Origin: Trypanosoma brucei
Lineage: Eukaryota
Assembly (NCBI GenBank): GCA_000002445.1
Contig: CP000069.1
Location: 1,344,001 to 1,408,000 of the forward strand
Direction: 5' to 3'
Length of the DNA stretch: 64,000 nucleotides
Made by a program: the position numbers and the translations under genes. Each line of letters opens with the position of its first letter. The stretch's first letter is position 1. Shown piece by piece: positions 1-33,004 of this stretch. Under the pieces are notes generated by a model that saw nothing but the letters and a program-made list of their open reading frames with translations, was not told the DNA's origin and searched no databases.

Positions 1-593
1 CGCATGGACCCAATGGGGTCCCAACATTGGTATTAAAACCACTGTCAAACGACTATGTTGTCACCATCCGCTCCATGAAAGTAAAGCACTATTTACTTGT
101 TCGTAAGAAAAAGTCAGTTATAAGGAAAAAACTAATCCACATGCAAATCTGTGGCGCACCGCGACATTATAACATTCGCAAAAAACACGATATGGAAAAA
201 AACAATTAAGCAACAATATGAAACGGAGATATTATCGCAACATAACAGGAATCAAGTTTCTATCCGTCTCAAACCACTTCCACTCGCTTAAAAAAAGGTA
301 GAAAACCAAAAAGGATATGGGTAAAGAAAAGAAATGAAATAAAATTAACACACAACAACGAAAACAAATAATAATAAATAAAATTAATGAAACAACAACA
401 GCAAAAATGTAATGAAAAAAAAAAAATAAAAGTTTTCACCTTACTTTGCTCTTTTCCTCTCAATTCCTCTCCCTGTCGGATGTACCATTAGTTTAAAGCT
501 ACTTCGCGTATACACCTCAGTGTACCCCTATTTCGTTTGCTCTACTCCGCAAGGTTCTACATCAATCCTACCGCCCTTGTTTCGTGAAAGGTG

Positions 594-1787
594 ATGTCCG
601 TGCGCCAGATATTCTTCACGTCGGAGCATGTGAGTGAAGGTCACCCCGATAAACTATGCGATCAGGTGTCGGATGCCGTACTGGATGCATGCCTTGAGCA
701 GGACCCGCTCTCTAAGGTTGCATGCGAGACGTGCTCAAAGACGGGGATGGTGCTTGTGTTTGGTGAGATCACAACGAAGGCTGTGATTGACTACCAGAAG
801 GTCGTACGTGACACGGTTAAGGAGATCGGCTTCGATAACACTGAGAAGGGGTTGGACTACCGTTCACTGAACCTGCTTGTGGCCGTTGAGCAACAATCAC
901 CCGATATTTACCAGGGCCTCGGTGACTTTGGCGGGGAGAACCTCGGTGCTGGAGACCAGGGCATGATGTTTGGTTATGCGACGAATGAGACGGAGACACT
1001 AATGCCACTCTCTTACGAACTTGCGCGCGGTCTTGCAATGACATACAGCGAGTTGCGACGCAATGGTGGTCTTCCGTGGGCGCGCCCCGACGCTAAGACG
1101 CAAGTGACAGTGCAGTACGAATATGACACCCGCGGTGGCAAGCAGTTGCTGACACCTAAGCGAGTGGCTGTGATTCTTGTTTCTGCCCAGCATGACGACG
1201 GTGTGTCAAATGAAACCATCCGCGAGGACCTGGTGAAGAAGGTAATCAGCACCACCATTCCCGCGAAGTTCCTCGATGAGAACACCAAATATCACTTGAA
1301 CCCATCTGGGCGTTTCGTCATCGGTGGCCCACATGGTGACGCTGGGTTAACTGGTCGCAAGATAATTGTTGACACGTATGGCGGTTGGGGTGCCCATGGT
1401 GGTGGCGCGTTTTCTGGCAAGGATCCCTCGAAGGTGGACCGGTCGGCAGCGTATGCTGCTCGCTGGATTGCGAAGTCTCTGGTGGCCGCAGGTCTTGCAG
1501 ATCGGTGCCTTGTACAACTTTCGTACGCCATTGGAGTTGCGGAACCGCTCAATATCCATGTCGACACATATGGCACTGGTAAGCGCGATGACGAGTATAT
1601 ATTGGGTATTGTGCAGAAAAACTTCCGACTGCGCCCGTACGACATAATCAAGGAACTTGATCTTCGTCGGCCGATATACCGCCAGACTGCCTGTTTCGGG
1701 CACTTTGGGCGTGTGGACACGAACGGGAAGGGAGGATTCACGTGGGAGGTGCCCAAAACACTAGAGGGTCTTAGTGACGTGCAGTAG
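594..1787 (+). CDS. METK1: S-adenosylmethionine synthetase (methionine adenosyltransferase), array copy 1.
   Basis: 397-aa product carrying the MAT signatures GHPDK, GAGDQG and GGGAFSGKD(P/Y)[13 protein letters not shown], collinear with E. coli MetK and human MAT2A. The track ORF starts at GTG 591; the first ATG is 594. Confidence 0.93.
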
Positions 1788-2035
1788 TGTGTACTGCGCA
1801 CGAATAATCAGGCACACCTCCTTGCCCATCCTCACTGTTTGCGAGTAACTGCTCGCTTCCCGCCGAGTGGGTTCCTGTTGGTAACAACACCCGCCTTCGC
1901 TTATTTTTCGTTGTTACGTGATGTCATGTACTTGGCGATGTTGTGCATAAGGGAGTGGAGTAAGTAATAACAGTAGACAGGAGGTGGACGTTGCAATTAA
2001 ATTGTTTGACAAGTGTGAGGGTAGAGGGGGAAAGA

Positions 2036-2058
2036 ATATATATATATATATATATATA
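2036..2058. repeat. (AT)n microsatellite in the METK 3' spacer. Representative; it is present in every unit and its length varies between units by roughly 9-12 repeats.
   Basis: The atatatatat... run lies ~250 nt after each METK stop. Its length visibly differs between units, as does that of the poly(T) run. Confidence 0.85.
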
Positions 2059-2504
2059 ACATATACCTATTTATTATTTTTAGGTATGCTATTTCGTACA
2101 CTAACGCTGTACTTTAATTCCTGGTATTTCCCACATATTGTTTCTCGGATGCGGTTTGCTCCTCATTCTTTACCTTTTTTGTTTTCTTTCGTTTTTACTC
2201 CATCATATGTTACCTTGACTGTAAACGTGTTGTTGTAAGTACTGTGACCTGTTAGCGTTACGTTTCAACTTTTTTCCCCTGCCTTACTGGGAGGTAAGTG
2301 TGATAACGACAGCAAGTGGGTACCATTATGATTGTAATTGTAAGAAATATTATTTCTGTTACATCAACCTTTGTCATTTAACTGTCACTCACGTATGGTA
2401 AGTCCTACGGTCTGTCGCCGGGGCTTTGCTTACCGTTCGTTGCTCTATCCGCTGCTGCGCACATGTAGTGAAGTACCTCGTTGTAACTGTAGTAAATAGC
2501 TAAT

Positions 2505-2604
2505 CTCCTATGTCTCCTTATTATTGTCCTTCTTTCTTCTCTTCTCTTTTGTTTTTTTTTTACCCTCAATTCCTCTCCCTGTCGGATGTACCATTAGTTT
2601 AAAG
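2505..2604 (+). promoter_or_regulatory. Polypyrimidine tract plus AG dinucleotides: the putative SL trans-splice acceptor region for the downstream METK copy, and probably also the element that directs polyadenylation of the upstream copy. This is a representative; the same element recurs once per unit at ~4611, 6715, 8821, 10925, 13030, 15134 and 17238, with a shorter version at 435-476 before copy 1.
   Basis: A ~78-nt C/T tract (ctccttattattgtccttctttcttctcttctcttttg, a T10-13 run, accctcaattcctctccct) is followed by AG at 2596-2597 and 2603-2604, about 100 nt upstream of the ATG. Confidence 0.6.
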
Positions 2605-2699
2605 CTACTTCGCGTATACACCTCAGTGTACCCCTATTTCGTTTGCTCTACTCCGCAAGGTTCTACATCAATCCTACCGCCCTTGTTTCGTGAAAGGTG

Positions 2700-3893
2700 A
2701 TGTCCGTGCGCCAGATATTCTTCACGTCGGAGCATGTGAGTGAAGGTCACCCCGATAAACTATGCGATCAGGTGTCGGATGCCGTACTGGATGCATGCCT
2801 TGAGCAGGACCCGCTCTCTAAGGTTGCATGCGAGACGTGCTCAAAGACGGGGATGGTGCTTGTGTTTGGTGAGATCACAACGAAGGCTGTGATTGACTAC
2901 CAGAAGGTCGTACGTGACACGGTTAAGGAGATCGGCTTCGATAACACTGAGAAGGGGTTGGACTACCGTTCACTGAACCTGCTTGTGGCCGTTGAGCAAC
3001 AATCACCCGATATTTACCAGGGCCTCGGTGACTTTGGCGGGGAGAACCTCGGTGCTGGAGACCAGGGCATGATGTTTGGTTATGCGACGAATGAGACGGA
3101 GACACTAATGCCACTCTCTTACGAACTTGCGCGCGGTCTTGCAATGACATACAGCGAGTTGCGACGCAATGGTGGTCTTCCGTGGGCGCGCCCCGACGCT
3201 AAGACGCAAGTGACAGTGCAGTACGAATATGACACCCGCGGTGGCAAGCAGTTGCTGACACCTAAGCGAGTGGCTGTGATTCTTGTTTCTGCCCAGCATG
3301 ACGACGGTGTGTCAAATGAAACCATCCGCGAGGACCTGGTGAAGAAGGTAATCAGCACCACCATTCCCGCGAAGTTCCTCGATGAGAACACCAAATATCA
3401 CTTGAACCCATCTGGGCGTTTTGTCATCGGTGGCCCACATGGTGACGCTGGGTTAACTGGTCGCAAGATAATTGTTGACACGTATGGCGGTTGGGGTGCC
3501 CATGGTGGTGGCGCGTTTTCTGGCAAGGATCCCTCGAAGGTGGACCGGTCGGCAGCGTATGCTGCTCGCTGGATTGCAAAGTCTCTGGTGGCCGCAGGTC
3601 TTGCAGATCGGTGCCTTGTACAACTTTCGTACGCCATTGGAGTTGCGGAACCGCTCAATATCCATGTCGACACATATGGCACTGGTAAGCGCGATGACGA
3701 GTATATATTGGGTATTGTGCAGAAAAACTTCCGACTGCGCCCGTACGACATAATCAAGGAACTTGATCTTCGTCGGCCGATATACCGCCAGACTGCCTGT
3801 TTCGGGCACTTTGGGCGTGTGGACACGAACGGGAAGGGAGGATTCACGTGGGAGGTGCCCAAAACACTAGAGGGTCTTAGTGACGTGCAGTAG
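2700..3893 (+). CDS. METK1: S-adenosylmethionine synthetase, array copy 2. It carries two synonymous SNPs (TTT at ~3420, GCA at ~3577).
   Basis: Protein identical to copy 1. The nucleotide differences show up only as changes in the overlapping alternative-frame ORFs. Confidence 0.93.
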
Positions 3894-4805
3894 TGTGTAC
3901 TGCGCACGAATAATCAGGCACACCTCCTTGCCCATCCTCACTGTTTGCGAGTAACTGCTCGCTTCCCGCCGAGTGGGTTCCTGTTGGTAACAACACCCGC
4001 CTTCGCTTATTTTTCGTTGTTACGTGATGTCATGTACTTGGCGATGTTGTGCATAAGGGAGTGGAGTAAGTAATAACAGTAGACAGGAGGTGGACGTTGC
4101 AATTAAATTGTTTGACAAGTGTGAGGGTAGAGGGGGAAAGAATATATATATATATATATATAACATATACCTATTTATTATTTTTAGGTATGCTATTTCG
4201 TACACTAACGCTGTACTTTAATTCCTGGTATTTCCCACATATTGTTTCTCGGATGCGGTTTGCTCCTCATTCTTTACCTTTTTTGTTTTCTTTCGTTTTT
4301 ACTCCATCATATGTTACCTTGACTGTAAACGTGTTGTTGTAAGTACTGTGACCTGTTAGCGTTACGTTTCAACTTTTTTCCCCTGCCTTACTGGGAGGTA
4401 AGTGTGATAACGACAGCAAGTGGGTACCATTATGATTGTAATTGTAAGAAATATTATTTCTGTTACATCAACCTTTGTCATTTAACTGTCACTCACGTAT
4501 GGTAAGTCCTACGGTCTGTCGCCGGGGCTTTGCTTACCGTTCGTTGCTCTATCCGCTGCTGCGCACATGTGGTGAAGTACCTCGTTGTAACTGTAGTAAA
4601 TAGCTAATCTCCTATGTCTCCTTATTATTGTCCTTCTTTCTTCTCTTCTCTTTTGTTTTTTTTTTTTACCCTCAATTCCTCTCCCTGTCGGATGTACCAT
4701 TAGTTTAAAGCTACTTCGCGTATACACCTCAGTGTACCCCTATTTCGTTTGCTCTACTCCGCAAGGTTCTACATCAATCCTACCGCCCTTGTTTCGTGAA
4801 AGGTG

Positions 4806-5999
4806 ATGTCCGTGCGCCAGATATTCTTCACGTCGGAGCATGTGAGTGAAGGTCACCCCGATAAACTATGCGATCAGGTGTCGGATGCCGTACTGGATGC
4901 ATGCCTTGAGCAGGACCCGCTCTCTAAGGTTGCATGCGAGACGTGCTCAAAGACGGGGATGGTGCTTGTGTTTGGTGAGATCACAACGAAGGCTGTGATT
5001 GACTACCAGAAGGTCGTACGTGACACGGTTAAGGAGATCGGCTTCGATAACACTGAGAAGGGGTTGGACTACCGTTCACTGAACCTGCTTGTGGCCGTTG
5101 AGCAACAATCACCCGATATTTACCAGGGCCTCGGTGACTTTGGCGGGGAGAACCTCGGTGCTGGAGACCAGGGCATGATGTTTGGTTATGCGACGAATGA
5201 GACGGAGACACTAATGCCACTCTCTTACGAACTTGCGCGCGGTCTTGCAATGACATACAGCGAGTTGCGACGCAATGGTGGTCTTCCGTGGGCGCGCCCC
5301 GACGCTAAGACGCAAGTGACAGTGCAGTACGAATATGACACCCGCGGTGGCAAGCAGTTGCTGACACCTAAGCGAGTGGCTGTGATTCTTGTTTCTGCCC
5401 AGCATGACGACGGTGTGTCAAATGAAACCATCCGCGAGGACCTGGTGAAGAAGGTAATCAGCACCACCATTCCCGCGAAGTTCCTCGATGAGAACACCAA
5501 ATATCACTTGAACCCATCTGGGCGTTTCGTCATCGGTGGCCCACATGGTGACGCTGGGTTAACTGGTCGCAAGATAATTGTCGACACGTATGGCGGTTGG
5601 GGTGCCCATGGTGGTGGCGCGTTTTCTGGCAAGGATCCCTCGAAGGTGGACCGGTCGGCAGCGTATGCTGCTCGCTGGATTGCGAAGTCTCTGGTGGCCG
5701 CAGGTCTTGCAGATCGGTGCCTTGTACAACTTTCGTACGCCATTGGAGTTGCGGAACCGCTCAATATCCATGTCGACACATATGGCACTGGTAAGCGCGA
5801 TGACGAGTATATATTGGGTATTGTGCAGAAAAACTTCCGACTGCGCCCGTACGACATAATCAAGGAACTTGATCTTCGTCGGCCGATATACCGCCAGACT
5901 GCCTGTTTCGGGCACTTTGGGCGTGTGGACACGAACGGGAAGGGAGGATTCACGTGGGAGGTGCCCAAAACACTAGAGGGTCTTAGTGACGTGCAGTAG
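4806..5999 (+). CDS. METK1: S-adenosylmethionine synthetase, array copy 3. Synonymous GTT to GTC change at ~5583.
   Basis: Protein identical to the consensus. The same SNP is present in copy 5. Confidence 0.93.
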
Positions 6000-6909
6000 T
6001 GTGTACTGCGCACGAATAATCAGGCACACCTCCTTGCCCATCCTCACTGTTTGCGAGTAACTGCTCGCTTCCCGCCGAGTGGGTTCCTGTTGGTAACAAC
6101 ACCCGCCTTCGCTTATTTTTCGTTGTTACGTGATGTCATGTACTTGGCGATGTTGTGCATAAGGGAGTGGAGTAAGTAATAACAGTAGACAGGAGGTGGA
6201 CGTTGCAATTAAATTGTTTGACAAGTGTGAGGGTAGAGGGGGAAAGAATATATATATATATATATAACATATACCTATTTATTATTTTTAGGTATGCTAT
6301 TTCGTACACTAACGCTGTACTTTAATTCCTGGTATTTCCCACATATTGTTTCTCGGATGCGGTTTGCTCCTCATTCTTTACCTTTTTTGTTTTCTTTCGT
6401 TTTTACTCCATCATATGTTACCTTGACTGTAAACGTGTTGTTGTAAGTACTGTGACCTGTTAGCGTTACGTTTCAACTTTTTTCCCCTGCCTTACTGGGA
6501 GGTAAGTGTGATAACGACAGCAAGTGGGTACCATTATGATTGTAATTGTAAGAAATATTATTTCTGTTACATCAACCTTTGTCATTTAACTGTCACTCAC
6601 GTATGGTAAGTCCTACGGTCTGTCGCCGGGGCTTTGCTTACCGTTCGTTGCTCTATCCGCTGCTGCGCACATGTAGTGAAGTACCTCGTTGTAACTGTAG
6701 TAAATAGCTAATCTCCTATGTCTCCTTATTATTGTCCTTCTTTCTTCTCTTCTCTTTTGTTTTTTTTTTTTACCCTCAATTCCTCTCCCTGTCGGATGTA
6801 CCATTAGTTTAAAGCTACTTCGCGTATACACCTCAGTGTACCCCTATTTCGTTTGCTCTACTCCGCAAGGTTCTACATCAATCCTACCGCCCTTGTTTCG
6901 TGAAAGGTG

Positions 6910-8103
6910 ATGTCCGTGCGCCAGATATTCTTCACGTCGGAGCATGTGAGTGAAGGTCACCCCGATAAACTATGCGATCAGGTGTCGGATGCCGTACTGG
7001 ATGCATGCCTTGAGCAGGACCCGCTCTCTAAGGTTGCATGCGAGACGTGCTCAAAGACGGGGATGGTGCTTGTGTTTGGTGAGATCACAACGAAGGCTGT
7101 GATTGACTACCAGAAGGTCGTACGTGACACGGTTAAGGAGATCGGCTTCGATAACACTGAGAAGGGGTTGGACTACCGTTCACTGAACCTGCTTGTGGCC
7201 GTTGAGCAACAATCACCCGATATTTACCAGGGCCTCGGTGACTTTGGCGGGGAGAACCTCGGTGCTGGAGACCAGGGCATGATGTTTGGTTATGCGACGA
7301 ATGAGACGGAGACACTAATGCCACTCTCTTACGAACTTGCGCGCGGTCTTGCAATGACATACAGCGAGTTGCGACGCAATGGTGGTCTTCCGTGGGCGCG
7401 CCCCGACGCTAAGACGCAAGTGACAGTGCAGTACGAATATGACACCCGCGGTGGCAAGCAGTTGCTGACACCTAAGCGAGTGGCTGTGATTCTTGTTTCT
7501 GCCCAGCTTGACGACGGTGTGTCAAATGAAACCATCCGCGAGGACCTGGTGAAGAAGGTAATCAGCACCACCATTCCCGCGAAGTTCCTCGATGAGAACA
7601 CCAAATATCACTTGAACCCATCTGGGCGTTTCGTCATCGGTGGCCCACATGGTGACGCTGGGTTAACTGGTCGCAAGATAATTGTTGACACGTATGGCGG
7701 TTGGGGTGCCCATGGTGGTGGCGCGTTTTCTGGCAAGGATCCCTCGAAGGTGGACCGGTCGGCAGCGTATGCTGCTCGCTGGATTGCGAAGTCTCTGGTG
7801 GCCGCAGGTCTTGCAGATCGGTGCCTTGTACAACTTTCGTACGCCATTGGAGTTGCGGAACCGCTCAATATCCATGTCGACACATATGGCACTGGTAAGC
7901 GCGATGACGAGTATATATTGGGTATTGTGCAGAAAAACTTCCGACTGCGCCCGTACGACATAATCAAGGAACTTGATCTTCGTCGGCCGATATACCGCCA
8001 GACTGCCTGTTTCGGGCACTTTGGGCGTGTGGACACGAACGGGAAGGGAGGATTCACGTGGGAGGTGCCCAAAACACTAGAGGGTCTTAGTGACGTGCAG
8101 TAG
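6910..8103 (+). CDS. METK1: S-adenosylmethionine synthetase, array copy 4. Nonsynonymous variant His200 to Leu (CAT to CTT at 7507-7509).
   Basis: The ORF-track protein reads VSAQLDDGV where the other copies read VSAQHDDGV. Confidence 0.9.
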
Positions 8104-9015
8104 TGTGTACTGCGCACGAATAATCAGGCACACCTCCTTGCCCATCCTCACTGTTTGCGAGTAACTGCTCGCTTCCCGCCGAGTGGGTTCCTGTTGGTAA
8201 CAACACCCGCCTTCGCTTATTTTTCGTTGTTACGTGATGTCATGTACTTGGCGATGTTGTGCATAAGGGAGTGGAGTAAGTAATAACAGTAGACAGGAGG
8301 TGGACGTTGCAATTAAATTGTTTGACAAGTGTGAGGGTAGAGGGGGAAAGAATATATATATATATATATATAACATATACCTATTTATTATTTTTAGGTA
8401 TGCTATTTCGTACACTAACGCTGTACTTTAATTCCTGGTATTTCCCACATATTGTTTCTCGGATGCGGTTTGCTCCTCATTCTTTACCTTTTTTGTTTTC
8501 TTTCGTTTTTACTCCATCATATGTTACCTTGACTGTAAACGTGTTGTTGTAAGTACTGTGACCTGTTAGCGTTACGTTTCAACTTTTTTCCCCTGCCTTA
8601 CTGGGAGGTAAGTGTGATAACGACAGCAAGTGGGTACCATTATGATTGTAATTGTAAGAAATATTATTTCTGTTACATCAACCTTTGTCATTTAACTGTC
8701 ACTCACGTATGGTAAGTCCTACGGTCTGTCGCCGGGGCTTTGCTTACCGTTCGTTGCTCTATCCGCTGCTGCGCACATGTGGTGAAGTACCTCGTTGTAA
8801 CTGTAGTAAATAGCTAATCTCCTATGTCTCCTTATTATTGTCCTTCTTTCTTCTCTTCTCTTTTGTTTTTTTTTTTTACCCTCAATTCCTCTCCCTGTCG
8901 GATGTACCATTAGTTTAAAGCTACTTCGCGTATACACCTCAGTGTACCCCTATTTCGTTTGCTCTACTCCGCAAGGTTCTACATCAATCCTACCGCCCTT
9001 GTTTCGTGAAAGGTG

Positions 9016-10209
9016 ATGTCCGTGCGCCAGATATTCTTCACGTCGGAGCATGTGAGTGAAGGTCACCCCGATAAACTATGCGATCAGGTGTCGGATGCCG
9101 TACTGGATGCATGCCTTGAGCAGGACCCGCTCTCTAAGGTTGCATGCGAGACGTGCTCAAAGACGGGGATGGTGCTTGTGTTTGGTGAGATCACAACGAA
9201 GGCTGTGATTGACTACCAGAAGGTCGTACGTGACACGGTTAAGGAGATCGGCTTCGATAACACTGAGAAGGGGTTGGACTACCGTTCACTGAACCTGCTT
9301 GTGGCCGTTGAGCAGCAATCACCCGATATTTACCAGGGCCTCGGTGACTTTGGCGGGGAGAACCTCGGTGCTGGAGACCAGGGCATGATGTTTGGTTATG
9401 CGACGAATGAGACGGAGACACTAATGCCACTCTCTTACGAACTTGCGCGCGGTCTTGCAATGACATACAGCGAGTTGCGACGCAATGGTGGTCTTCCGTG
9501 GGCGCGCCCCGACGCTAAGACGCAAGTGACAGTGCAGTACGAATATGACACCCGCGGTGGCAAGCAGTTGCTGACACCTAAGCGAGTGGCTGTGATTCTT
9601 GTTTCTGCCCAGCATGACGACGGTGTGTCAAATGAAACCATCCGCGAGGACCTGGTGAAGAAGGTAATCAGCACCACCATTCCCGCGAAGTTCCTCGATG
9701 AGAACACCAAATATCACTTGAACCCATCTGGGCGTTTCGTCATCGGTGGCCCACATGGTGACGCTGGGTTAACTGGTCGCAAGATAATTGTCGACACGTA
9801 TGGCGGTTGGGGTGCCCATGGTGGTGGCGCGTTTTCTGGCAAGGATCCCTCGAAGGTGGACCGGTCGGCAGCGTATGCTGCTCGCTGGATTGCGAAGTCT
9901 CTGGTGGCCGCAGGTCTTGCAGATCGGTGCCTTGTACAACTTTCGTACGCCATTGGAGTTGCGGAACCGCTCAATATCCATGTCGACACATATGGCACTG
10001 GTAAGCGCGATGACGAGTATATATTGGGTATTGTGCAGAAAAACTTCCGACTGCGCCCGTACGACATAATCAAGGAACTTGATCTTCGTCGGCCGATATA
10101 CCGCCAGACTGCCTGTTTCGGGCACTTTGGGCGTGTGGACACGAACGGGAAGGGAGGATTCACGTGGGAGGTGCCCAAAACACTAGAGGGTCTTAGTGAC
10201 GTGCAGTAG
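9016..10209 (+). CDS. METK1: S-adenosylmethionine synthetase, array copy 5. Two synonymous SNPs (CAG at ~9313, GTC at ~9783).
   Basis: Protein identical to the consensus. Confidence 0.93.
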
Positions 10210-11121
10210 TGTGTACTGCGCACGAATAATCAGGCACACCTCCTTGCCCATCCTCACTGTTTGCGAGTAACTGCTCGCTTCCCGCCGAGTGGGTTCCTGT
10301 TGGTAACAACACCCGCCTTCGCTTATTTTTCGTTGTTACGTGATGTCATGTACTTGGCGATGTTGTGCATAAGGGAGTGGAGTAAGTAATAACAGTAGAC
10401 AGGAGGTGGACGTTGCAATTAAATTGTTTGACAAGTGTGAGGGTAGAGGGGGAAAGAATATATATATATATATATATAACATATACCTATTTATTATTTT
10501 TAGGTATGCTATTTCGTACACTAACGCTGTACTTTAATTCCTGGTATTTCCCACATATTGTTTCTCGGATGCGGTTTGCTCCTCATTCTTTACCTTTTTT
10601 GTTTTCTTTCGTTTTTACTCCATCATATGTTACCTTGACTGTAAACGTGTTGTTGTAAGTACTGTGACCTGTTAGCGTTACGTTTCAACTTTTTTCCCCT
10701 GCCTTACTGGGAGGTAAGTGTGATAACGACAGCAAGTGGGTACCATTATGATTGTAATTGTAAGAAATATTATTTCTGTTACATCAACCTTTGTCATTTA
10801 ACTGTCACTCACGTATGGTAAGTCCTACGGTCTGTCGCCGGGGCTTTGCTTACCGTTCGTTGCTCTATCCGCTGCTGCGCACATGTAGTGAAGTACCTCG
10901 TTGTAACTGTAGTAAATAGCTAATCTCCTATGTCTCCTTATTATTGTCCTTCTTTCTTCTCTTCTCTTTTGTTTTTTTTTTTTACCCTCAATTCCTCTCC
11001 CTGTCGGATGTACCATTAGTTTAAAGCTACTTCGCGTATACACCTCAGTGTACCCCTATTTCGTTTGCTCTACTCCGCAAGGTTCTACATCAATCCTACC
11101 GCCCTTGTTTCGTGAAAGGTG

Positions 11122-12315
11122 ATGTCCGTGCGCCAGATATTCTTCACGTCGGAGCATGTGAGTGAAGGTCACCCCGATAAACTATGCGATCAGGTGTCGG
11201 ATGCCGTACTGGATGCATGCCTTGAGCAGGACCCGCTCTCTAAGGTTGCATGCGAGACGTGCTCAAAGACGGGGATGGTGCTTGTGTTTGGTGAGATCAC
11301 AACGAAGGCTGTGATTGACTACCAGAAGGTCGTACGTGACACGGTTAAGGAGATCGGCTTCGATAACACTGAGAAGGGGTTGGACTACCGTTCACTGAAC
11401 CTGCTTGTGGCCGTTGAGCAACAATCACCCGATATTTACCAGGGCCTCGGTGACTTTGGCGGGGAGAACCTCGGTGCTGGAGACCAGGGCATGATGTTTG
11501 GTTATGCGACGAATGAGACGGAGACACTAATGCCACTCTCTTACGAACTTGCGCGCGGTCTTGCAATGACATACAGCGAGTTGCGACGCAATGGTGGTCT
11601 TCCGTGGGCGCGCCCCGACGCTAAGACGCAAGTGACAGTGCAGTACGAATATGACACCCGCGGTGGCAAGCAGTTGCTGACACCTAAGCGAGTGGCTGTG
11701 ATTCTTGTTTCTGCCCAGCATGACGACGGTGTGTCAAATGGAACCATCCGCGAGGACCTGGTGAAGAAGGTAATCAGCACCACCATTCCCGCGAAGTTCC
11801 TCGATGAGAACACCAAATATCACTTGAACCCATCTGGGCGTTTCGTCATCGGTGGCCCACATGGTGACGCTGGGTTAACTGGTCGCAAGATAATTGTTGA
11901 CACGTATGGCGGTTGGGGTGCCCATGGTGGTGGCGCGTTTTCTGGCAAGGATCCCTCGAAGGTGGACCGGTCGGCAGCGTATGCTGCTCGCTGGATTGCG
12001 AAGTCTCTGGTGGCCGCAGGTCTTGCAGATCGGTGCCTTGTACAACTTTCGTACGCCATTGGAGTTGCGGAACCGCTCAATATCCATGTCGACACATATG
12101 GCACTGGTAAGCGCGATGACGAGTATATATTGGGTATTGTGCAGAAAAACTTCCGACTGCGCCCGTACGACATAATCAAGGAACTTGATCTTCGTCGGCC
12201 GATATACCGCCAGACTGCCTGTTTCGGGCACTTTGGGCGTGTGGACACGAACGGGAAGGGAGGATTCACGTGGGAGGTGCCCAAAACACTAGAGGGTCTT
12301 AGTGACGTGCAGTAG
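11122..12315 (+). CDS. METK1: S-adenosylmethionine synthetase, array copy 6. Nonsynonymous variant Glu207 to Gly (GAA to GGA at 11740-11742).
   Basis: The ORF-track protein reads VSNGTIRED where the other copies read VSNETIRED. Confidence 0.9.
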
Positions 12316-13226
12316 TGTGTACTGCGCACGAATAATCAGGCACACCTCCTTGCCCATCCTCACTGTTTGCGAGTAACTGCTCGCTTCCCGCCGAGTGGGT
12401 TCCTGTTGGTAACAACACCCGCCTTCGCTTATTTTTCGTTGTTACGTGATGTCATGTACTTGGCGATGTTGTGCATAAGGGAGTGGAGTAAGTAATAACA
12501 GTAGACAGGAGGTGGACGTTGCAATTAAATTGTTTGACAAGTGTGAGGGTAGAGGGGGAAAGAATATATATATATATATATATAACATATACCTATTTAT
12601 TATTTTTAGGTATGCTATTTCGTACACTAACGCTGTACTTTAATTCCTGGTATTTCCCACATATTGTTTCTCGGATGCGGTTTGCTCCTCATTCTTTACC
12701 TTTTTTGTTTTCTTTCGTTTTTACTCCATCATATGTTACCTTGACTGTAAACGTGTTGTTGTAAGTACTGTGACCTGTTAGCGTTACGTTTCAACTTTTT
12801 TCCCCTGCCTTACTGGGAGGTAAGTGTGATAACGACAGCAAGTGGGTACCATTATGATTGTAATTGTAAGAAATATTATTTCTGTTACATCAACCTTTGT
12901 CATTTAACTGTCACTCACGTATGGTAAGTCCTACGGTCTGTCGCCGGGGCTTTGCTTACCGTTCGTTGCTCTATCCGCTGCTGCGCACATGTGGTGAAGT
13001 ACCTCGTTGTAACTGTAGTAAATAGCTAATCTCCTATGTCTCCTTATTATTGTCCTTCTTTCTTCTCTTCTCTTTTGTTTTTTTTTTTACCCTCAATTCC
13101 TCTCCCTGTCGGATGTACCATTAGTTTAAAGCTACTTCGCGTATACACCTCAGTGTACCCCTATTTCGTTTGCTCTACTCCGCAAGGTTCTACATCAATC
13201 CTACCGCCCTTGTTTCGTGAAAGGTG

Positions 13227-14420
13227 ATGTCCGTGCGCCAGATATTCTTCACGTCGGAGCATGTGAGTGAAGGTCACCCCGATAAACTATGCGATCAGGT
13301 GTCGGATGCCGTACTGGATGCATGCCTTGAGCAGGACCCGCTCTCTAAGGTTGCATGCGAGACGTGCTCAAAGACGGGGATGGTGCTTGTGTTTGGTGAG
13401 ATCACAACGAAGGCTGTGATTGACTACCAGAAGGTCGTACGTGACACGGTTAAGGAGATCGGCTTCGATAACACTGAGAAGGGGTTGGACTACCGTTCAC
13501 TGAACCTGCTTGTGGCCGTTGAGCAACAATCACCCGATATTTACCAGGGCCTCGGTGACTTTGGCGGGGAGAACCTCGGTGCTGGAGACCAGGGCATGAT
13601 GTTTGGTTATGCGACGAATGAGACGGAGACACTAATGCCACTCTCTTACGAACTTGCGCGCGGTCTTGCAATGACATACAGCGAGTTGCGACGCAATGGT
13701 GGTCTTCCGTGGGCGCGCCCCGACGCTAAGACGCAAGTGACAGTGCAGTACGAATATGACACCCGCGGTGGCAAGCAGTTGCTGACACCTAAGCGAGTGG
13801 CTGTGATTCTTGTTTCTGCCCAGCATGACGACGGTGTGTCAAATGAAACCATCCGCGAGGACCTGGTGAAGAAGGTAATCAGCACCACCATTCCCGCGAA
13901 GTTCCTCGATGAGAACACCAAATATCACTTGAACCCATCTGGGCGTTTCGTCATCGGTGGCCCACATGGTGACGCTGGGTTAACTGGTCGCAAGATAATT
14001 GTTGACACGTATGGCGGTTGGGGTGCCCATGGTGGTGGCGCGTTTTCTGGCAAGGATCCCTCGAAGGTGGACCGGTCGGCAGCGTATGCTGCTCGCTGGA
14101 TTGCGAAGTCTCTGGTGGCCGCAGGTCTTGCAGATCGGTGCCTTGTACAACTTTCGTACGCCATTGGAGTTGCGGAACCGCTCAATATCCATGTCGACAC
14201 ATATGGCACTGGTAAGCGCGATGACGAGTATATATTGGGTATTGTGCAGAAAAACTTCCGACTGCGCCCGTACGACATAATCAAGGAACTTGATCTTCGT
14301 CGGCCGATATACCGCCAGACTGCCTGTTTCGGGCACTTTGGGCGTGTGGACACGAACGGGAAGGGAGGATTCACGTGGGAGGTGCCCAAAACACTAGAGG
14401 GTCTTAGTGACGTGCAGTAG
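13227..14420 (+). CDS. METK1: S-adenosylmethionine synthetase, array copy 7.
   Basis: Protein identical to the consensus. Confidence 0.93.
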
Positions 14421-15330
14421 TGTGTACTGCGCACGAATAATCAGGCACACCTCCTTGCCCATCCTCACTGTTTGCGAGTAACTGCTCGCTTCCCGCCGAG
14501 TGGGTTCCTGTTGGTAACAACACCCGCCTTCGCTTATTTTTCGTTGTTACGTGATGTCATGTACTTGGCGATGTTGTGCATAAGGGAGTGGAGTAAGTAA
14601 TAACAGTAGACAGGAGGTGGACGTTGCAATTAAATTGTTTGACAAGTGTGAGGGTAGAGGGGGAAAGAATATATATATATATATATAACATATACCTATT
14701 TATTATTTTTAGGTATGCTATTTCGTACACTAACGCTGTACTTTAATTCCTGGTATTTCCCACATATTGTTTCTCGGATGCGGTTTGCTCCTCATTCTTT
14801 ACCTTTTTTGTTTTCTTTCGTTTTTACTCCATCATATGTTACCTTGACTGTAAACGTGTTGTTGTAAGTACTGTGACCTGTTAGCGTTACGTTTCAACTT
14901 TTTTCCCCTGCCTTACTGGGAGGTAAGTGTGATAACGACAGCAAGTGGGTACCATTATGATTGTAATTGTAAGAAATATTATTTCTGTTACATCAACCTT
15001 TGTCATTTAACTGTCACTCACGTATGGTAAGTCCTACGGTCTGTCGCCGGGGCTTTGCTTACCGTTCGTTGCTCTATCCGCTGCTGCGCACATGTGGTGA
15101 AGTACCTCGTTGTAACTGTAGTAAATAGCTAATCTCCTATGTCTCCTTATTATTGTCCTTCTTTCTTCTCTTCTCTTTTGTTTTTTTTTTTTACCCTCAA
15201 TTCCTCTCCCTGTCGGATGTACCATTAGTTTAAAGCTACTTCGCGTATACACCTCAGTGTACCCCTATTTCGTTTGCTCTACTCCGCAAGGTTCTACATC
15301 AATCCTACCGCCCTTGTTTCGTGAAAGGTG

Positions 15331-16524
15331 ATGTCCGTGCGCCAGATATTCTTCACGTCGGAGCATGTGAGTGAAGGTCACCCCGATAAACTATGCGATC
15401 AGGTGTCGGATGCCGTACTGGATGCATGCCTTGAGCAGGACCCGCTCTCTAAGGTTGCATGCGAGACGTGCTCAAAGACGGGGATGGTGCTTGTGTTTGG
15501 TGAGATCACAACGAAGGCTGTGATTGACTACCAGAAGGTCGTACGTGACACGGTTAAGGAGATCGGCTTCGATAACACTGAGAAGGGGTTGGACTACCGT
15601 TCACTGAACCTGCTTGTGGCCGTTGAGCAACAATCACCCGATATTTACCAGGGCCTCGGTGACTTTGGCGGGGAGAACCTCGGTGCTGGAGACCAGGGCA
15701 TGATGTTTGGTTATGCGACGAATGAGACGGAGACACTAATGCCACTCTCTTACGAACTTGCGCGCGGTCTTGCAATGACATACAGCGAGTTGCGACGCAA
15801 TGGTGGTCTTCCGTGGGCGCGCCCCGACGCTAAGACGCAAGTGACAGTGCAGTACGAATATGACACCCGCGGTGGCAAGCAGTTGCTGACACCTAAGCGA
15901 GTGGCTGTGATTCTTGTTTCTGCCCAGCATGACGACGGTGTGTCAAATGAAACCATCCGCGAGGACCTGGTGAAGAAGGTAATCAGCACCACCATTCCCG
16001 CGAAGTTCCTCGATGAGAACACCAAATATCACTTGAACCCATCTGGGCGTTTCGTCATCGGTGGCCCACATGGTGACGCTGGGTTAACTGGTCGCAAGAT
16101 AATTGTTGACACGTATGGCGGTTGGGGTGCCCATGGTGGTGGCGCGTTTTCTGGCAAGGATCCCTCGAAGGTGGACCGGTCGGCAGCGTATGCTGCTCGC
16201 TGGATTGCGAAGTCTCTGGTGGCCGCAGGTCTTGCAGATCGGTGCCTTGTACAACTTTCGTACGCCATTGGAGTTGCGGAACCGCTCAATATCCATGTCG
16301 ACACATATGGCACTGGTAAGCGCGATGACGAGTATATATTGGGTATTGTGCAGAAAAACTTCCGACTGCGCCCGTACGACATAATCAAGGAACTTGATCT
16401 TCGTCGGCCGATATACCGCCAGACTGCCTGTTTCGGGCACTTTGGGCGTGTGGACACGAACGGGAAGGGAGGATTCACGTGGGAGGTGCCCAAAACACTA
16501 GAGGGTCTTAGTGACGTGCAGTAG
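15331..16524 (+). CDS. METK1: S-adenosylmethionine synthetase, array copy 8.
   Basis: Protein identical to the consensus. Confidence 0.93.
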
Positions 16525-17434
16525 TGTGTACTGCGCACGAATAATCAGGCACACCTCCTTGCCCATCCTCACTGTTTGCGAGTAACTGCTCGCTTCCCGC
16601 CGAGTGGGTTCCTGTTGGTAACAACACCCGCCTTCGCTTATTTTTCGTTGTTACGTGATGTCATGTACTTGGCGATGTTGTGCATAAGGGAGTGGAGTAA
16701 GTAATAACAGTAGACAGGAGGTGGACGTTGCAATTAAATTGTTTGACAAGTGTGAGGGTAGAGGGGGAAAGAATATATATATATATATATAACATATACC
16801 TATTTATTATTTTTAGGTATGCTATTTCGTACACTAACGCTGTACTTTAATTCCTGGTATTTCCCACATATTGTTTCTCGGATGCGGTTTGCTCCTCATT
16901 CTTTACCTTTTTTGTTTTCTTTCGTTTTTACTCCATCATATGTTACCTTGACTGTAAACGTGTTGTTGTAAGTACTGTGACCTGTTAGCGTTACGTTTCA
17001 ACTTTTTTCCCCTGCCTTACTGGGAGGTAAGTGTGATAACGACAGCAAGTGGGTACCATTATGATTGTAATTGTAAGAAATATTATTTCTGTTACATCAA
17101 CCTTTGTCATTTAACTGTCACTCACGTATGGTAAGTCCTACGGTCTGTCGCCGGGGCTTTGCTTACCGTTCGTTGCTCTATCCGCTGCTGCGCACATGTA
17201 GTGAAGTACCTCGTTGTAACTGTAGTAAATAGCTAATCTCCTATGTCTCCTTATTATTGTCCTTCTTTCTTCTCATCTCTTTTGTTTTTTTTTTTTACCC
17301 TCAATTCCTCTCCCTGTCGGATGTACCATTAGTTTAAAGCTACTTCGCGTATACACCTCAGTGTACCCCTATTTCGTTTGCTCTACTCCGCAAGGTTCTA
17401 CATCAATCCTACCGCCCTTGTTTCGTGAAAGGTG

Positions 17435-18628
17435 ATGTCCGTGCGCCAGATATTCTTCACGTCGGAGCATGTGAGTGAAGGTCACCCCGATAAACTATGC
17501 GATCAGGTGTCGGATGCCGTACTGGATGCATGCCTTGAGCAGGACCCGCTCTCTAAGGTTGCATGCGAGACGTGCTCAAAGACGGGGATGGTGCTTGTGT
17601 TTGGTGAGATCACAACGAAGGCTGTGATTGACTACCAGAAGGTCGTACGTGACACGGTTAAGGAGATCGGCTTCGATAACACTGAGAAGGGGTTGGACTA
17701 CCGTTCACTGAACCTGCTTGTGGCCGTTGAGCAACAATCACCCGATATTTACCAGGGCCTCGGTGACTTTGGCGGGGAGAACCTCGGTGCTGGAGACCAG
17801 GGCATGATGTTTGGTTATGCGACGAATGAGACGGAGACACTAATGCCACTCTCTTACGAACTTGCGCGCGGTCTTGCAATGACATACAGCGAGTTGCGAC
17901 GCAATGGTGGTCTTCCGTGGGCGCGCCCCGACGCTAAGACGCAAGTGACAGTGCAGTACGAATATGACACCCGCGGTGGCAAGCAGTTGCTGACACCTAA
18001 GCGAGTGGCTGTGATTCTTGTTTCTGCCCAGCATGACGACGGTGTGTCAAATGAAACCATCCGCGAGGACCTGGTGAAGAAGGTAATCAGCACCACCATT
18101 CCCGCGAAGTTCCTCGATGAGAACACCAAATATCACTTGAACCCATCTGGGCGTTTCGTCATCGGTGGCCCACATGGTGACGCTGGGTTAACTGGTCGCA
18201 AGATAATTGTTGACACGTATGGCGGTTGGGGTGCCCATGGTGGTGGCGCGTTTTCTGGCAAGGATCCCTCGAAGGTGGACCGGTCGGCAGCGTATGCTGC
18301 TCGCTGGATTGCGAAGTCTCTGGTGGCCGCAGGTCTTGCAGATCGGTGCCTTGTACAACTTTCGTACGCCATTGGAGTTGCGGAACCGCTCAATATCCAT
18401 GTCGACACATATGGCACTGGTAAGCGCGATGACGAGTATATATTGGGTATTGTGCAGAAAAACTTCCGACTGCGCCCGTACGACATAATCAAGGAACTTG
18501 ATCTTCGTCGGCCGATATACCGCCAGACTGCCTGTTTCGGGCACTTTGGGCGTGTGGACACGAACGGGAAGGGAGGATTCACGTGGGAGGTGCCCAAAAC
18601 ACTAGAGGGTCTTAGTGACGTGCAGTAG
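17435..18628 (+). CDS. METK1: S-adenosylmethionine synthetase, array copy 9 (the last).
   Basis: Protein identical to the consensus. The spacer after it is truncated at 18727, where unique sequence begins. Confidence 0.93.
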
Positions 18629-18780
18629 TGTGTACTGCGCACGAATAATCAGGCACACCTCCTTGCCCATCCTCACTGTTTGCGAGTAACTGCTCGCTTC
18701 CCGCCGAGTGGGTTCCTGTTGGTAACAACTTTATTTGTTATATAGGAGAGGGCATTGTTTTTTAAATTAATATTTTTTTT

Positions 18781-18880
18781 GTTAATATATATATATATAT
18801 ATATATATATTTTAAATTTTTTGTCTCTATGTTTTTTTTTCTGCTGTTATAATATATATATATATATATATGTATAATTT
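18781..18880. repeat. Two (AT)n microsatellites and T-rich low complexity immediately flanking the 3' end of the array.
   Basis: tatatatatatatatatatatat at ~18785-18810 and again at ~18853-18878. Confidence 0.8.
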
Positions 18881-30918: not shown

Positions 30919-32700
30919 GTGGAACTGCGCGCCATAGTTTGTTGTTCGTTATCAAATGAAGCTCTATATGATGTTTTGTTCTTCGTTTCTTTTACTTTTT
31001 TTCGTTTTTTTTTCTTGTTGTTTTTATGTTTTATGTTTTATGTTTTTTTTCTTCTTTTTTTTATTTTTATTGTTTTTTTTGTTTATTGTGTTTTTTTTTT
31101 ACGTTTTGGTTCTCGCTAGCTTCTTTTTTTTTTTCGTTTTTGCTACCTCCCTTTTTTCTCGCGTTATTGATTTGCTCTCTCTCTCTTTTTTTTTTTTTTG
31201 CAAAGCTATTTATTTTGTTTATTAAACTCTACGGGGGAGAACAGTTTTTTTTTGTTTTATTTTTGTGTGTAACACGGGGTCGTGGGAGAGTTAGGGGGGT
31301 GGGAGGGGACAAAAAAAAAAAGAAAAATGAAATAGAAAAAACCCAAACAAAAAAAAGAACAAAAAGAAGGATAATAATTATAAAAGAAACGCACATACAA
31401 CAACTGTCTTTTGTAGCACGAACAGTGTTACGGCGGCAGTAACAACAACAGCAAAAAAAAAAAAAGCAAATATGCCGCAGGTTTGATGAGGGATTTATGT
31501 TTTGCATGCGGAAGTAATTTGTGTTATGGCGAAGGGCACACCACAACAAAAATACAAAAGCAAAAAACAAAAAACAAAAAACAAAAAACACAAAAACACA
31601 AAAAAAACACGAGCCACGAAACAACAACAACAATAACAACAACAACAACAACGCAGTAAAACAATAAAACAAAACAAAACGAAAAGGAAAGAACACACAT
31701 GCACACATATACATGCAAATACAACAACAAGGAATTTAAAAAAAAAACAAATATTTGAAAAAGAAAAAAGCAAAGTGAAAGTATAAAAAAAAAAGAAAAG
31801 AGACGGAAAGAAGAAGGGGGACACTTGTGTTTGTGTTTGTGTATGTTTATGTTGATGTGTGTGGGAAGGGGAGGGGGAAGTGGCAATGTGAAGTGAAGTG
31901 AAGTGAAGCAATAAATTTTTAAAAGAAAAAGAAAAAAAAAGAAGCAAAAGAAAAAGAAGCAAAAGAAAAGAAAAGAGAAAGCTCGAACCCAATGAATCCA
32001 AAAGAAAGTTCTTTTTTAAAGTTAAACTTAAAGTTAAATATAATAACACCACTAAAACAAACAAACAAACGAATAAACAACAACAACAACAAAAAGAAAG
32101 CAACCGGATGGGGAAATATATATATATATATATACGAAAATGTTCGACAAAAAGAAAAAGAAATAACATTGTTTAATTGTTTGCGTGTGTTTGGTGTACG
32201 TGTGTTCGTTTGTGTGTATGTGTATGCACTGGAGAGTTCGAAAGTGTGTGTTAGGTGTGATAGGGGAATTTCGTTTTCAAAACAAAAACGAACAAACAAA
32301 CAAACTTCTTTTTAATTCCTCAAGGTAGGCAAAACAAAACTAATTTTTTTTAAAAAAAATTAAAAACAATATTCACTACCACTGCACGATAGTGAATATT
32401 GTCTGTCTGTCTGTTTGTTTGTTTGTTTGTGTGTTTTTTTGTGTGTTTGTGCTTGTTTGTACTACCCATTGCTGCTTTACATATATATGTTTGGAGACTC
32501 GCTCTTCCATGTTATCTCGTTTCTTTCCCTTGAATTTGTTGGAGTGGAGTGGGAGGGGGAGAGGAAAAAAAAAAATAAAATAAAAATAAAAACTGTTTGT
32601 TTTTGTTTTTGTTGTTTGTATTTCCGTTTCACTTTTTTCTTCTTTTGTCTGTCTGTGTTCTTATATTTTTAATATTGTTTCATATTGATTTTCATTTTAT
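30919..32700. repeat. ~1.8-kb low-complexity region. The + strand is T-rich at 30950-31260 and A-rich with (AAAAC)n, (AAC)n, (GTGAA)4 and (CAAA)n microsatellites at 31300-32350; an inverted (TTTG/TCTG)n block follows at 32392-32470.
   Basis: Read directly from the sequence. All ORFs the track reports here on both strands are poly-F, poly-L or poly-K translation artefacts. Confidence 0.85.
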
Positions 32701-32973
32701 TGCTCCCGCTCTCCCTACTCTTTTACTCTGTTAGCTCCCATATTCTCCTCAGAACCTGCGTCAAAACTTCACTTTTTTTTTCTTTGCAACTTCTTCTTTT
32801 TTAAAAAAAAATCTCTTTATCTAATGTTCGTTTCATCCACACTAGTAAATATAAGAAAGGAGAGAAAAAACACATATTTGCTTATAATATAAGAAGCATA
32901 CGCACATACATATATATTTATCTATCACAAAAATAGCAATAATAATAATAGCATATATTATTATACATTATAT

Positions 32974-32978
<5 letters not shown>

Positions 32979-33004
<26 letters not shown>
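32979..33004. repeat. (GT)13 microsatellite immediately upstream of the cyclin start codon.
   Basis: ttttgtgtgtgtgtgtgtgtgtgtgtgtgtta. Confidence 0.9.

Follow-up and report, generated by a model that had tools for sequence, protein, structure and literature searches.

Nine S-adenosylmethionine synthetase genes stand head to tail on the plus strand of chromosome 6 of Trypanosoma brucei brucei TREU927, and one spacer nucleotide nearly alternates between A and G from each unit of this array to the next. The array (TbAdoMetSyn, METK1) occupies positions 452–18729 of the window that we analyzed, a stretch of 64,000 nucleotides (nt) covering 1,344,001–1,408,000 of the forward strand of contig CP000069.1. 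Our preferred explanation, to which we give a probability of roughly three in four, is that this known dosage array is kept near-identical by ordinary concerted evolution and that the near-alternation is a by-product of about three homogenizing events. The alternation is real in the sequence, rests on one site and does not depart significantly from chance. An initial annotation of the window had instead seen a two-unit higher-order repeat, formed by amplification of a dimer with one A-type and one G-type spacer and later partly overwritten by conversion tracts. In our judgment, the array does not merit that name.

The identity of the array is secure. Its units, defined by repeat search and alignments (Tandem Repeats Finder output, with a longest period of 500, does not contain it), are 2104–2106 nt long by their spacing across the array, and each carries a 397-codon S-adenosylmethionine synthetase open reading frame (ORF). 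This is the nine-copy array Tb927.6.4840–Tb927.6.4920, already known to encode TbAdoMetSyn, whose recombinant form is active and converts ATP and methionine to AdoMet (PMC6221367). Jackson 2007 (BMC Evol Biol 7:54, PMC1855330) lists it as array Tb47, S-adenosylmethionine synthetase, among the ‘invariant’ arrays homogenized by unequal crossing-over, in which coding sequences (CDSs) are identical save for occasional silent changes and spacers differ in repeat-tract length only. All nine array products match deposited TREU927 proteins exactly and in the same order, with the variant copies at 4 and 6: P0123 (AAZ12042 and others) is the product of copies 1, 2, 3, 5, 7, 8 and 9, P0121 (AAZ12045) that of copy 4 and P0125 (AAZ12047) that of copy 6. 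The MAT domains PF00438, PF02772 and PF02773 (Pfam) span P0001, which is one residue off the window consensus, and every listed homolog. The nine coding copies are as follows.

594–1787, plus strand: CDS of copy 1, 397 amino acids, consensus; its translation is an exact match to P0123.
2700–3893, plus strand: CDS of copy 2, which alone has the synonymous changes C>T at 3422 and G>A at 3578.
4806–5999, plus strand: CDS of copy 3, with GTT>GTC at 5582, in common with copy 5.
6910–8103, plus strand: CDS of copy 4, with a private A>T at 7508 (H200L).
9016–10209, plus strand: CDS of copy 5, with a private synonymous A>G at 9315 and GTT>GTC at 9792.
11122–12315, plus strand: CDS of copy 6, with a private A>G at 11741 (E207G).
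13227–14420, plus strand: CDS of copy 7, consensus.
15331–16524, plus strand: CDS of copy 8, consensus.
17435–18628, plus strand: CDS of copy 9, consensus.

The eight internal spacers, S1–S8, differ at the A/G position, which we call site 680, at one further nucleotide and in the length of two tracts.

2467, plus strand: site 680 of S1; A, the ancestral state.
4571, plus strand: site 680 of S2; G, the derived state.
6675, plus strand: site 680 of S3; A.
8781, plus strand: site 680 of S4; G.
10887, plus strand: site 680 of S5; A.
12993, plus strand: site 680 of S6; G.
15096, plus strand: site 680 of S7; G, where the alternation is broken.
17200, plus strand: site 680 of S8; A.
17275, plus strand: private T>A of S8 at site 755, within the polypyrimidine tract that precedes the copy 9 trans-splice acceptor.
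8352–8371, plus strand: (AT)n microsatellite, S4 example; n = 11, 10, 9, 10, 10, 10, 9 and 9 in S1–S8.
8866–8877, plus strand: poly-T run of the polypyrimidine tract, S4 example; length 10, 12, 12, 12, 12, 11, 12 and 12 in S1–S8.
8912–8913, plus strand: spliced-leader acceptor AG, S4 example; at the same offset in every spacer and upstream of copy 1.

The multiple alignment of all nine units, a check that the initial annotation had proposed, finds only 8 single-nucleotide polymorphism (SNP) sites and 2 length-variable tracts in ~19 kb. This near-zero divergence among the nine units, noncoding spacers included, is what concerted evolution produces. Six of the eight SNP sites are singletons; the two informative ones are site 680 and CDS position 777 (CDS777), where a synonymous GTT>GTC change in codon 259 is carried by copies 3 and 5 only. 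Most of what the initial annotation had read directly from the letters holds. The order A, G, A, G, A, G, G, A is right at all eight positions, each within the motif CACATGT[R]GTGAAG; copies 3 and 5 alone carry GTC and each follows a G-type spacer, although the positions given for it, 5583 and 9789, are off by 1 and 3 nt; copies 7–9 have the consensus CDS, as does copy 1; and the private change reported in the spacer upstream of copy 9 is the T>A at 17275, its motif beginning at 17272.

The minority SNP states look like real, young mutations, because six of the eight sites are transitions and all the minority states are absent from other strains. The comparison covered four other assemblies of the T. 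brucei group, in which the array is short or possibly collapsed.

IVM-t1 (GCA_003543875.1): 4 copies; site 680 is A in 3/3 internal spacers, and CDS777 is T in all copies.
T. b. gambiense DAL972: ~6 copies with two 100-N gaps; site 680 is A in 4/4 assembled spacers, and CDS777 is T in all.
Logan ERR034315: one collapsed unit; site 680 is A, and CDS777 is T.
T. equiperdum OVI: 1 copy without an internal spacer; CDS777 is T.

G at site 680, C at CDS777 and all the singleton states occur in no unit of these other assemblies; therefore, both G and C are recent and arose on the TREU927 branch. The alternation, which the initial annotation had suggested looking for in other strains, has no counterpart there: every spacer of IVM-t1, DAL972 and ERR034315 that could be compared carries A. 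Moreover, at CDS600 (T/C) and CDS656 (G/A, S219N), found for example at window positions 1193 and 1249, TREU927 differs from IVM-t1, DAL972 and ERR034315, and each genome is uniform in all its copies, with residue 219 being S in TREU927 and N in the other three. This within-genome uniformity is a classical signature of concerted evolution. At the same two sites, T. equiperdum OVI has the TREU927 state. IVM-t1 has a shared spacer variant of its own at position 413, which reads C, G, G over three successive spacers (L001) and is thus adjacent, not alternating.

How far does the alternation exceed what a random order would give? Four A and four G in eight places form at least seven runs in 8 of the 70 possible arrangements (exact P = 0.114). 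The CDS C occurs with an upstream G spacer in 2/4 cases and with an upstream A spacer in 0/4 (Fisher P = 0.21). For whole units, the mean number of SNP differences is 2.71 at lag 1 and 2.00 at lag 2, and exact permutation of the unit order gives P = 0.067 for the lag-1 minus lag-2 difference when only SNPs are counted and P = 0.17 when all characters, including the two lengths, are used. Thus, the lag-2 excess is not significant, and these P values lose further weight because the pattern was chosen after inspection.

The higher-order repeat proposed in the initial annotation fares no better when the two supposed types of unit are compared. They differ consistently at one site of ~2,105 nt, and at a second in only 2/4 cases. 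Several diagnostic differences between two monomer types were looked for across the nine units and not found: CDS777 is changed in 2/4 G units, and neither (AT)n nor poly-T length tracks the two types. Nor is the two-unit period kept along the whole array, as S6 and S7 both carry G. Well-known higher-order repeats, including primate alpha satellite and the alpha/beta-tubulin array of T. brucei, share the principle of a multi-unit exchange block in which every n-th unit is more alike. In those systems, however, the monomers have many differences or represent distinct genes, with overwhelming statistical support for the periodicity, whereas here 1–2 of ~2,105 nt differ and the period is broken at copy 8. 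A closer likeness is to concerted evolution of the ribosomal DNA type, in which young variants also stand at intermediate frequency in non-adjacent units, although the present array is protein-coding, has nine units and holds too few variants for exchange register or conversion tract lengths to be estimated.

Which processes could have placed the variants where they stand? Multi-unit unequal exchange and gene conversion are textbook processes in tandem arrays. We ran an exhaustive breadth-first search over arrays that tracked the two informative sites. It permitted a single A>G and a single T>C mutation, tandem duplications and deletions involving 1–4 units at any phase, and conversion tracts covering 1–3 sites. 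The minimum for the observed order is two mutations plus three further events. Without conversion, this minimum is reached only by two two-unit duplications and one single-unit duplication, in four equally short orderings. A history of three gene conversions, with the copy number constant at nine, is equally short. By contrast, no series of single-unit duplications and deletions alone led to the pattern in this search. Forward simulations agree. Given that G occupies 4 of the 8 spacers, the probability of at least seven runs is 0 for exchange by one unit only, 0.04, 0.11 and 0.24 for three settings of mixed-size offsets, 0.115 for distance-independent conversion and 1 for exchange by two units only. 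Strict one-unit unequal crossing-over is therefore rejected as the sole process, and the data do not tell the remaining models apart; two informative sites are too few to single out any history of duplication or conversion. If the assembled order is right, the presence of the derived G in non-adjacent spacers means that exchange in a register of at least two units, or gene conversion between non-adjacent units, has taken place.

The haplotypes of the two informative SNPs, written with site 680 first, are A-T, G-T and G-C. They are nested and show no four-gamete conflict; therefore, no recombination between the two sites is required, and conversion is allowed but dispensable. All four combinations are seen only between site 680 and (AT)n length, a case that recurrent microsatellite slippage can explain. 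The mosaic that the initial annotation had ascribed to patchy gene conversion thus finds no incompatible sites or conflicting tracts between the two informative SNPs. Its proposal that conversion had overwritten copies 7–9 is not supported, as the duplication history needs no conversion and in it copies 7 and 8, which are G-T, represent the older G form that predates T>C.

We propose that the few variants are young mutations on the lineage to TREU927, six of which are still confined to one unit. The spacer A>G change would have come first, and a unit that already had G would then have acquired T>C in its CDS, ~1 kb farther downstream. A handful of homogenizing events would have copied the two variants to other units, presumably by out-of-register exchange over several units, by short-tract gene conversion or by both. 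Several observations weigh against this explanation. First, S1–S6 alternate strictly and both G-C units stand exactly two apart, as a preferred two-unit register would have it. Second, random conversion yields such alternation just ~11% of the time. Third, the G-type spacers S2 and S4 are identical across all 912 nt, and S6 differs from both by one T. Finally, the variants and the unit order come from one early (~2005) assembly; exact look-ups of the TREU927 proteins (window copy 1, P0123, P0121 and P0125) yielded no contig that could serve as an independent copy.

One rival explanation is amplification of a dimer, in which a block of ~4.2 kb with one A spacer and one G spacer was the unit of amplification and the array would be an incipient higher-order repeat. 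The order of events would then be the G mutation, a two-unit duplication, T>C, a second two-unit duplication and, last, a single-unit duplication of a G-T unit. Among the shortest histories, no other dispenses with gene conversion; simulations with a two-unit offset always alternate, and the matching spacers S2 and S4 are each followed by a C-bearing CDS. Nevertheless, we regard it as possible but unlikely. The initial annotation was right that two-unit duplications can lead to the present array, but its claim that this is the simplest course is undone by the tie with conversion-only histories at three events, and the periodicity on which it leans is not significant. The supposed ‘a’ units (copies 2, 4 and 6) lack any common diagnostic change, and neither IVM-t1 nor DAL972 has such a pattern. 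In addition, the A-type spacers S1, S3 and S5 have 11, 9 and 10 AT repeats, and S1 has a shorter poly-T run, whereas the G-type spacers are more alike. A-spacers would be the more diverse because a young G spread into older, already diversified positions, whereas amplification of a dimer predicts equal ages. This asymmetry in (AT)n is a weak point of the argument, because tract lengths in Sanger assemblies are unreliable (Jackson 2007, PMC1855330). It is quite unlikely, in our judgment, that the assembled order is right and that a preferential two-unit register operates as well, in which case the array would be a higher-order repeat at its birth in an array of a housekeeping enzyme. If that register is true, the order of events toward a higher-order repeat can be reconstructed.

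The correctness of the assembled order is itself a presumption. With short Sanger reads from a 2.1-kb repeat that is ~99.9% identical, the variants could be real and their assignment to units partly misassembled, and the alternation would then say nothing about history. The informative and unique markers lie 0.5–1.7 kb apart and most are common to several units, which makes such misplacement conceivable. In other assemblies, the locus has 1, 4 or ~6 copies, in some cases interrupted by N gaps, and the read check in Jackson 2007 covered chromosomes 9–11 only, not chromosome 6 (PMC1855330). Nearly every unit, however, has private markers (copies 2, 4, 5 and 6; spacers S1, S6 and S8), and paired reads from clones of an assumed 2–4 kb could therefore have ordered most units. 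The TREU927 record is also treated as a finished chromosome. On balance, we doubt that misplacement accounts for the alternation. More generally, unit order in early Sanger assemblies of near-identical repeats is not interpretable without spanning reads.

A different kind of artifact would be the interleaving of an all-A and an all-G array from the two homologous chromosomes. TREU927 is heterozygous, with ~2.2 variants per kb (PMC8445201), and A and G do stand at 4:4. At that typical rate, however, several co-phased differences are predicted per 2.1-kb unit, and just one 4:4 site was found; C is present in 2/4 G units, and six of the eight SNPs are singletons. On these grounds we reject a simple mixture of two alleles. 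Chromosomes 2–8 were, we presume, sequenced clone by clone from bacterial artificial chromosomes, which would sample one haplotype and argues further against mixing. Overall, we consider allelic interleaving highly improbable.

Under concerted evolution, which we favor, the array behaves as already described, and the new significance is small. Like the ‘invariant’ T. brucei arrays of Jackson 2007, among which this locus is counted, it has rare and mostly silent CDS changes, spacers that vary by tract length, flanks whose match to the internal spacers is curtailed and differences from other genomes that all its copies share, with no essential departure from that class. Individual variants and their order in the arrays do not appear to be tabulated in that paper. 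If the unit order is verified, the array would provide a small worked example of how variants move within a short gene array, including exchange beyond a one-unit offset.

The position of the spacer variants relative to mRNA processing signals bears on whether the A and G spacers could differ in function. In L006 and L008, two Logan contigs derived from RNA, sequence from the 3′ part of the spliced leader runs into TTTAAAGCTACTTCG, at spacer position 811; this junction maps the acceptor and gives a mature 5′ untranslated region of 102 nt. Site 680 lies 131 nt upstream of this acceptor and outside the polypyrimidine tract, and its placement gives no hint of a functional difference between A and G spacers. 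The private T>A of S8 and the poly-T length differences fall inside the tract.

Two copies encode altered proteins. Residue 200 is H in 122/122 aligned sequences and is L in copy 4, and position 207 is E or D in 118/122 aligned sequences and is G in copy 6. Judging by this conservation, H200L and E207G may mark functionally impaired copies that are tolerated in a multicopy array, or they may be sequencing errors in the reference. In IVM-t1, the fourth copy (L001, 16307–17500) lacks 1 nt at CDS position 255 and was not called as a gene; this is probably an assembly indel error rather than a real pseudogene. A contig from Logan ERR034315 (L004, 2139 nt) contains one complete unit, and its ends overlap by 30 nt. 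As it closes on itself, the array of this gambiense-like sample has been collapsed to one cycle, which implies no fixed differences between its units.

At the edges of the array, blastn matches to the internal spacer extend for only 142 nt 5′ of copy 1 (452–593) and 101 nt 3′ of copy 9 (18629–18729), so that a core of ~669 nt of the 912-nt internal spacer has no counterpart in either flank. An (AT)13 tract at 18785–18810 stands at nearly the offset of the (AT)9–11 tract of the spacers, and this placement suggests that the 3′ flank is a diverged homolog of the spacer. The genes 3′ of the array (RF-1, Mago nashi and a protein kinase) are in the same order as in DAL972. Farther downstream, positions 30974–33004 contain long T-rich, A-rich and short-period low-complexity tracts, and the G+C content falls to 0.35 around 32–34 kb. 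The sole minus-strand ORFs of at least 200 amino acids that lie outside larger plus-strand ORFs are found at 31495–32169, coinciding with these low-complexity tracts.

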